From Escherichia coli (GTDB taxonomy: Bacteria; Pseudomonadota; Gammaproteobacteria; Enterobacterales; Enterobacteriaceae), in the NCBI RefSeq assembly GCF_001677475.2, contig NZ_CP015229.1: a stretch of 64,000 nucleotides of DNA; one strand, 5' to 3'. Position 1 is the first letter of the stretch; each line of letters opens with the position of its first letter. A model generated the notes under the pieces. The model saw only the letters and a list, made by a program, of their open reading frames with translations. It had not been told where the DNA came from and did no database searches. Shown piece after piece: positions 57,024 through 58,427 of this stretch. The position numbers were made by a program, and so were the translations under genes.

Positions 57024-57050
57024 TCGACAAAGTGAATCGCCACGGATAAT

Positions 57051-57863
57051 CTAGACACTTCCGAGCCGTTGATAATACTGGTTTTCATATTCTGTCGGTG
57101 ACATCTGATCGCTGGAACCATGCCGACGCTTACTGTTATAAAACATTTCGATGTAATCAAAAATATCGCTGCGGGCTTCTTCCCGCGTTCCGTAGATCTT
57201 TTTCTTTATCCGTTCGCGTTTCAACAACTGGAAAAAGCTTTCTGCAACCGCATTATCATGGCAGTTACCGCGACGGCTCATGCTGCCCTCCAGGCCGTGT
57301 GATTTCAGGAACGACTGCCACTCATGGCTTGTGTACTGACTGCCCTGATCCGAATGAACCAGCACCTGTTTTTGGGGATTACGGCGCCATACAGCCATCA
57401 GCAGTGCGTTCAGGACAATGTCCTTTGTCATCCGGGATTGCATGGACCAGCCGATAATTTTGCGTGAGAACAGATCAACAACCACGGCAAGATACAGCCA
57501 GCCTTCGTGGGTCCTGATGTAGGTTATGTCCGTTACCCAACGCTTATCCGGAGCATCCGGATTGAACTGTCGCTGGAGCCTGTTGGGCGACACGATACTG
57601 GCCTCGCCTTTACGTGCCCGCGGGCTCCGGTATCCGACCTGAGCCTTTATCCCGACACGTTTCATCAGTCGCCAGACTCTGTTCACTCCGCACTGTTGCC
57701 CGCTGTCCCGCAGATCCAGATGGATTTTGCGATAACCATAGACGCATCCCGATTCCAGCCAGAACTGTTTAATCTGCCCTGTCAGCCTCAGGTCTGCCTG
57801 ATGGCGTTGTGAATGCGGCTGCTGAAGCCAGGCGTAAAAACCACTGGGATGAACATCCAGCAC
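57051..57863 (-). CDS. IS3-family transposase OrfB (DDE integrase domain), made as an OrfAB fusion by -1 frameshift
   Basis: 270-aa ORF containing the conserved SDQGSQYTS motif. Confidence 0.85.
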   Translation of the reverse strand: MLDVHPSGFYAWLQQPHSQRHQADLRLTGQIKQFWLESGCVYGYRKIHLDLRDSGQQCGVNRVWRLMKRVGIKAQVGYRSPRARKGEASIVSPNRLQRQFNPDAPDKRWVTDITYIRTHEGWLYLAVVVDLFSRKIIGWSMQSRMTKDIVLNALLMAVWRRNPQKQVLVHSDQGSQYTSHEWQSFLKSHGLEGSMSRRGNCHDNAVAESFFQLLKRERIKKKIYGTREEARSDIFDYIEMFYNSKRRHGSSDQMSPTEYENQYYQRLGSV

Positions 57864-57919
57864 CCGACAGAGCAGGCGAACAGGCCAGCAACAGGTGTTG
57901 TCACGGATAAAGGCGTACC

Positions 57920-58204
57920 TCAGTCGGACAGCTTTGCGAAGTACGCCGCGGCTTTTTTTAATATGTCCCGTTCGTCGGTAACCCGCTTCAGCTCTTTCTG
58001 GAGACGGCGGATCTCGGCCTGAGCATCTGACTGTTCTTTATTAGCGGAAGAATCCGGACCGTACTTCTTTATCCAGGCGTAAAGGCTGTGGGTGGTGATA
58101 TCGAGACGTGTTGCAACGCTGGCAACAGAATAACCGCGATCAACAACCTGTTTGACTGCTTCAATTTTAAACTCTTCGGGATAACGCTTACCGCTCATGG
58201 GCAC
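57920..58204 (-). CDS. IS3-family transposase OrfA (HTH DNA-binding)
   Basis: 94-aa ORF ending KKAAAYFAKLSD, with the A-AAA-AAG heptamer in the KKA codons. Confidence 0.85.
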   Translation of the reverse strand: MPMSGKRYPEEFKIEAVKQVVDRGYSVASVATRLDITTHSLYAWIKKYGPDSSANKEQSDAQAEIRRLQKELKRVTDERDILKKAAAYFAKLSD

Positions 58205-58427
58205 CTCTCTTTAAGCCATCTTAAATGACTCTGAGGTGTCTGTTAAACCCGTGGCGATTCAAAGATCGTCCAAGAGCGCACCAAATAACAGATGGTTATA
58301 GTCGTCGAAAACATCAGTCGCCTAAGTTCACCTTAGAACTAGTGCTGTTTTGTGTCCCACCCATGCCCCACTGCCCCTTCTTTTCCTTCCTGCCCTATAC
58401 TTTCAGTCTGACTGACTGGAGGCTTCT

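Follow-up and report, generated by a model that had tools for sequence, protein, structure and literature searches.

In the intergenic gap that separates the remnant of an integrase pseudogene from a SRAP gene of prophage origin lies an insertion sequence (IS), which raises the question of which IS it is, whether the copy is intact, and how recently it arrived. The reading we favour, with a probability of about 0.93, is that positions 57033..58261 of the window (the whole 64,000-nucleotide stretch of Escherichia coli DNA analysed here) hold an intact ISEhe3 (IS3 family, listed under the IS51 group) on the minus strand, inserted recently and specifically in the source lineage. The coordinates of its features are collected in Table 1.

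Table 1. Features of the insertion sequence and of its flanks, in window coordinates (-, minus strand;., no strand).
Feature	Positions	Strand	Evidence
Whole insertion sequence (ISEhe3)	57033..58261	-	1229 bp; 100% full-length identity to copies in other E. coli strains
Target-site duplication AAG, adjoining the IS right end in transposase reading direction	57030..57032	.	Single AAG in empty-site alleles
Target-site duplication AAG, adjoining the IS left end in transposase reading direction	58262..58264	.	Single AAG in empty-site alleles
IRL, left inverted repeat, upstream of orfA, terminal TG	58224..58261	-	38-nt arm, first 13 nt perfect
IRR, right inverted repeat, terminal ...CA in transposase reading direction	57033..57070	-	38-nt arm
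Promoter-like TTAACA-17-TAAGAT, partly within IRL, 20 nt upstream of the orfA ATG	58218..58246	-	Consensus scan 9/12
orfA, 92 aa + stop, helix-turn-helix DNA-binding protein	57920..58198	-	Pfam HTH_Tnp_1, E = 4e-20
orfB frame, -1 relative to orfA, catalytic domain	57051..57959	-	Pfam rve, HTH_21, rve_2; NF033516 364 bits
OrfAB fusion transposase, 382 aa, predicted by -1 shift at the heptamer	57051..58198	-	NF033516 1-369/369, 437.7 bits
Slippery heptamer A_AAA_AAA in orfA frame, then G at 57952	57953..57959	-	Frame arithmetic
Predicted RNA hairpin, 11-bp stem, 14-nt loop, starting 5 nt past the heptamer	57912..57947	-	-16 kcal/mol, z = -2.0

The results showed that this IS3-family element carries its transposase genes on the minus strand, a point missing from the original prediction, and that TGAATCGCCACGG opens both of its ends (13/13 positions). 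Over the 38-nt arms, 28 of 38 positions match (74% complementarity). The terminal repeats (TGAATCGCCACGG...CCGTGGCGATTCA) are imperfect, as had been described before, and have TG...CA ends of the IS3-family type. Within the 64-kb window the exact 13-mer TGAATCGCCACGG occurs at the two element ends only, and a search of the same 64 kb found a single ISEhe3 copy. The TTAACA-17-TAAGAT sequence upstream of orfA is a candidate promoter by its consensus match.

The orfB frame is offset by +2 (equivalent to -1) from orfA and stays open from the A-run to 57051, and its Pfam rve match reached E = 1.6e-33. The fused OrfAB aligned unbroken to the NCBI IS3 transposase model NF033516 (positions 1-369/369, 437.7 bits, cut-off 160), which bears out the earlier view of a complete IS3-family element; because the alignment runs in a single stretch, it also supports the placement of the fusion junction. 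The catalytic triad is D224, D284 and E320 (OrfAB numbering), in the motifs WVTDITY, HSDQGS and AVAESFF, with the spacing D-60-D-36-E that amounts to DD(35)E, because an offset of 36 from D to E leaves 35 residues between them. Database records place this exact OrfA sequence on 552 contigs. An exact database look-up found no record of the 382-aa OrfAB fusion sequence, which is expected since gene callers store orfA and orfB separately.

As to the name of the element, its DNA similarity to IS3 was about 70% over roughly 150 nt only, and the IS2 TnpB model scored 35 bits against a cut-off of 597; the original prediction that it is none of IS3, IS2 and IS911 was jointly upheld, and the exact IS, which that prediction had left unnamed, proved determinable. 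Plasmid pT5282-Ct2 (MF344574) has been reported with two ISEhe3 copies (PMC6872532). Its record NZ_MF344574 contains exactly two IS3-family CDSs, each within a 1229-bp element, and the window element is 98.9% identical to both of these copies named ISEhe3, with 13 mismatches over an equal 1229 bp and without gaps. UniRef entry A8Y8E1, which has exactly this OrfA sequence, bears the name 'ISEhe3 transposase A'; the PGAP name of the element's transposase is "IS3 family transposase" only. ISEhe3 is tabulated as an IS3-family, IS51-group element with 3-4 bp direct repeats and TG ends in an ISfinder-derived table (PMC10425158), and Shigella genome annotations use "ISEhe3 orfA (92 aa)" (PMC4924310). 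The length of 1229 bp, 3-bp direct repeats and TG ends are common to the window element and the named ISEhe3. A literature search for an IS3-family element given as 1229 bp found nothing. Judged by these proxies for the type sequence AF327445, the element at 57033..58261 is ISEhe3. We take ISEhe3 to have been first described on the pPATH plasmid of Pantoea agglomerans / Erwinia herbicola, with AF327445 as its ISfinder reference.

Identity to the window element is 98.3% for a copy from a Pantoea genome (L046), 97.8% for a truncated Pantoea copy (L033) and 88.2% for a Pantoea vagans copy. The name ISEhe3 is used loosely, the so-labelled copy of phage SfIV being 89.5% identical with its A-run lost. 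Because copies under this label differ so widely, the ISEhe3 family spans several sub-lineages, and full-length copies cluster in the corresponding identity bands (97-100%, about 94% and 88-92%). In the SfIV copy (L009, KC814930, about 600..612), TTGAATCTA-CAG stands where the window has TTAAAAAAAGCCG, with one base deleted; with the slippery run gone and a base missing, the usual route to OrfAB is closed to this copy.

The window element resembles IS911, IS3 and IS150, the IS3-family members studied by experiment, in that its ORFs overlap, one in frame 0 and the other in frame -1, and in having an A-rich heptamer upstream of an RNA structure (here predicted), a helix-turn-helix OrfA, a DD(35)E OrfB, TG...CA ends, a 3-bp target duplication and a promoter-like site in IRL. 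It departs from them in the sequence of its inverted repeats and in its heptamer, which is A_AAA_AAA and not A_AAA_AAG; it also has no match to the curated frameshift structures of Rfam, and circle formation and a junction promoter are assumed for it.

In the overlap of orfA and orfB, seven A are followed by G on the minus strand (57959..57952). The orfA-frame codons at this run are TTA AAA AAA GCC, which places the in-register X_XXY_YYZ heptamer as A_AAA_AAA (57959..57953). The original prediction had given A-AAA-AAG at 57952..57959; the A7G run is indeed there, but the register was off by one base. The A7G run is present in 18 of the 22 full-length relatives, A6G replaces it in two more, and distant relatives carry A_AAA_AAG at the equivalent place. 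In a 100%-identical copy (L001), PGAP annotates a two-piece 'programmed frameshift' CDS with the start, end and length of the predicted OrfAB, and the same 'programmed frameshift' annotation is given to copies of 98.0% (L004) and 99.9% (L005) identity. OrfAB would be produced by -1 frameshifting at the A7 run, a route that the unbroken alignment of the fusion to the family model supports.

The orfA stop codon sits in the 3' arm of the hairpin predicted at 57912..57947, and 8 of 200 shuffled sequences folded as well as this hairpin. Its sequence is invariant in copies at 88-99% identity. Relatives in Acinetobacter and Ralstonia, 65-67% identical, have an in-register A6G or A7G followed by nearly the same hairpin sequence, from which they depart only by a G-C to G-U change and a single terminal mismatch. 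No compensatory covariation was found in the copies at 88-99% or in the relatives at 65-67% identity, and the stretch codes in two frames; the hairpin therefore remains a prediction, and double coding alone could explain the conservation of its sequence. An Rfam scan of 56800..58500 at E <= 1 gave no match, and hence no curated frameshift element such as the ALIL pseudoknot.

For the target site, we joined 600 nt of left flank (one AAG included) to 600 nt of right flank and compared this empty-site query with 5,426 complete E. coli genomes. The results revealed a single-piece match over 93% of the query in E. coli 30EVA1, and matches running well beyond the junction in E. coli 63-2 and others. 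In 30EVA1 and 63-2, 79 of the 80 nt centred on the junction match, and the uninterrupted sequence ...CGACAAAGATCGTCC... carries a single AAG. Because these uninterrupted alleles have one AAG, the duplication is real and was made at insertion. The AAG repeats noted originally were found again on re-inspection, and strains with an uninterrupted target, which had been suggested as a check, do exist. The insertion at this site was absent from all 5,426 complete E. coli genomes. Two partial matches to the insertion (H81 and H82) were rejected, since they represent this IS inserted elsewhere, in the neighbouring leucine-rich-repeat (LRR) gene. Perfect 3-bp duplications, with no sequence shared among them, were seen at 7 of 23 full-length copies, where chance would give 0.36; the repeats are AAG, CTG, GTT, GGG, CTC, ATA and GGA, and these seven yield no target consensus. 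The remaining copies of the 23 lie at rearranged junctions, as was likewise reported for one ISEhe3 copy of pT5282-Ct2 (PMC6872532).

The insertion lies in a segment that runs from yedK and yedL through an EspR-like LRR/DUF5503 gene to the integrase remnant, followed by decayed prophage genes. The integrase fragment occupies 56826..57023, as assigned by correspondence with the PGAP annotation of the empty-site strains, where it is called an integrase pseudogene. The element starts 9 bp past the stop codon of this fragment, in keeping with its earlier placement beside an integrase remnant, and ends 164 bp upstream of a SRAP-Dam chimeric ORF. In this ORF (58428..59018, plus strand), residues 1-120 match SRAP (YedK-like peptidase) and residues 117-163 the C-terminus of a phage Dam methyltransferase, which suggests that two prophage genes became joined through a deletion. 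A terminator-like hairpin (56992..57010, plus strand; ATGCTCATCACATGAGCAT, then a T-rich stretch) marks the end of the integrase fragment and lies 22 bp ahead of the insertion point. The insertion site is bracketed by a 19-nt direct repeat, TGCCCCATCCATGCCCCAC at 56924..56942 and TGTCCCACCCATGCCCCAC at 58353..58371 (17/19 matching); its copies would stand about 200 bp apart without the IS, and it may be what is left of an attachment site, of a prophage or an island, beside the integrase fragment. Just downstream, an ORF at 59015..59833 (minus strand) has a weak HEPN-like match (RiboL-PSP-HEPN, below Pfam's cut-off), and 60932..62233 (plus strand) encodes an intact tyrosine integrase with an Arm-DNA-bind_2 domain; the two may belong to a second integrative element, more complete than the decayed one and adjoining it.

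The DUF5503/LRR ORF itself (55513..56631, minus strand, 372 aa), a homologue of EspR-type T3SS effectors, is intact in the window and frameshifted in E. coli 30EVA1 and 63-2. In O55:H7 strain DEC5B its homologue espR3 is split by the same IS with a GGG duplication, and in G4/9 and 2018-05-2CC the same IS lies in the LRR effector gene at a common junction that differs from that of DEC5B. The core genes from amyA to yedK (50450..54781 of the window) show no more than 98.6% identity to any of the 5,426 complete E. coli genomes; the lineage of origin, whether E. coli or Shigella, therefore lies outside that set.

Full-length copies with 100% identity were found in eight E. coli records from seven strains, including G4/9 and Res13-Sevr-PER07-33. 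Near-full-length copies are present in 186 E. coli records and in 701 plasmid records from Escherichia, Klebsiella, Enterobacter, Citrobacter, Salmonella, Pantoea and others, and up to 21 places per E. coli genome match the element, partial and diverged matches included. The 33-nt IRL sequence was matched exactly in 69 stretches from about 45 Enterobacterales species representatives, several Pantoea among them. An IS end was also seen at the tips of two contigs (L051 and L052) of OH_SBlB_54, a MAG labelled 'Bacillota bacterium'; this occurrence most likely reflects mis-binning or contamination rather than true host range.

The original prediction had called the insertion relatively recent and the element potentially active. 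The first claim gains support from the intact AAG duplication and from the count of 0/5,426 complete E. coli genomes with the insertion, and the second from the intact ORFs, the DD(35)E triad, the 100%-identical copies and the multi-copy family. Since the genes are intact, identical copies lie in genomes with several matches, and the insertion is strain-specific with its duplication preserved, we infer a recent event by an active element. The window copy was probably inserted recently and specifically in its source lineage, and its intactness and identical multi-copy relatives point to activity.

It is very improbable that this copy is a structurally complete but inactive fossil, or that the flanking AAG is coincidental. 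Decay does occur in the ISEhe3 family, as in the SfIV copy without an A-run and in relatives L030, L050, L062 and L077 with truncated or altered orfA or deletions, whereas the window copy retains orfA, orfB, the DDE triad, the A-run and both inverted repeats in intact form. Seven E. coli strains carry copies with 100% identity to the element, several of these strains having multiple matching places, and the number of such places in genomes with an identical copy (4 in G4/9 and 16 in 2018-05-2CC) indirectly suggests activity. As for the AAG, the empty-site alleles prove a duplication by insertion. Membership of another transposase family (IS481 or IS2-like) and a chimeric origin from two elements can both be dismissed with near certainty: a secondary match to an IS481 model reached 109 bits but fell below its cut-off of 224, IS2 TnpB gave 35 bits against 597, and the IS3 model gave 438 against 160 over its whole length, while 13 of the 22 independent full-length copies aligned gave gap-free, full-length, colinear matches. 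These model scores and matches rule out an IS481, IS2-like or chimeric identity.

How the fusion transposase is made admits another answer as well, namely that RNA polymerase stutters on A7 and drops one A, so that orfB comes into frame mainly through transcriptional slippage, a route reportedly used by some IS elements. The run here is A7 against A6G in distant relatives, and longer A-runs favour RNA polymerase realignment; yet A7 is short for efficient slippage, the known cases having mostly nine or more A or T. No Rfam frameshift stimulator was matched, which would suit slippage, but the heptamer lies in the correct X_XXY_YYZ register, and a predicted stable hairpin at the canonical 5-nt spacing, kept in the A6G relatives, is the arrangement to be expected of ribosomal -1 frameshifting. 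We therefore regard slippage as the main route as unlikely and retain frameshifting by the ribosome.

Established behaviour of the IS3 family (IS911, IS3, IS150 and IS2) is the basis for the following scheme for ISEhe3. A weak promoter in IRL would drive orfA. Most ribosomes would halt at the orfA stop codon and yield a small regulator with a helix-turn-helix and a leucine zipper, whereas a minority would slip by -1 on A_AAA_AAA, aided by the predicted hairpin 5 nt downstream, and make OrfAB. OrfAB would then bind the inverted repeats, cleave one strand at a 3' CA end and join the cleaved end 3 nt outside the other end, which after replication would give a circular copy with abutted ends. Integration of the circle at a new site through staggered 3-bp cuts would complete a copy-out, paste-in transposition.

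Two further ideas are unlikely. At least three independent ISEhe3 insertions lie within a span of about 3 kb in the yedL-to-fliE segment, which holds the LRR effector gene and a prophage remnant: the window copy (AAG), that in espR3 of DEC5B (GGG), and that at the LRR-gene junction common to G4/9 and 2018-05-2CC. The segment might conceivably be a regional hot spot for ISEhe3, in which case the element would shape the repertoire of EspR-type effectors. Alternatively, the A7 heptamer might raise the output of OrfAB, through frameshifting and transcriptional slippage together, and so account for the success of the element in Enterobacterales.

The significance of these results lies mostly in annotation, in that they name an element left unnamed before and involve no new mechanism. 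ISEhe3 is already known, catalogued and common in E. coli and its relatives, and it behaves as is known for the IS3 family. The lineage-specific insertion of an intact copy provides a usable marker for strain typing. Taken together, the copies recorded here document ISEhe3 as what appears to be a live and widely spread IS in the chromosomes and resistance plasmids of Enterobacterales.
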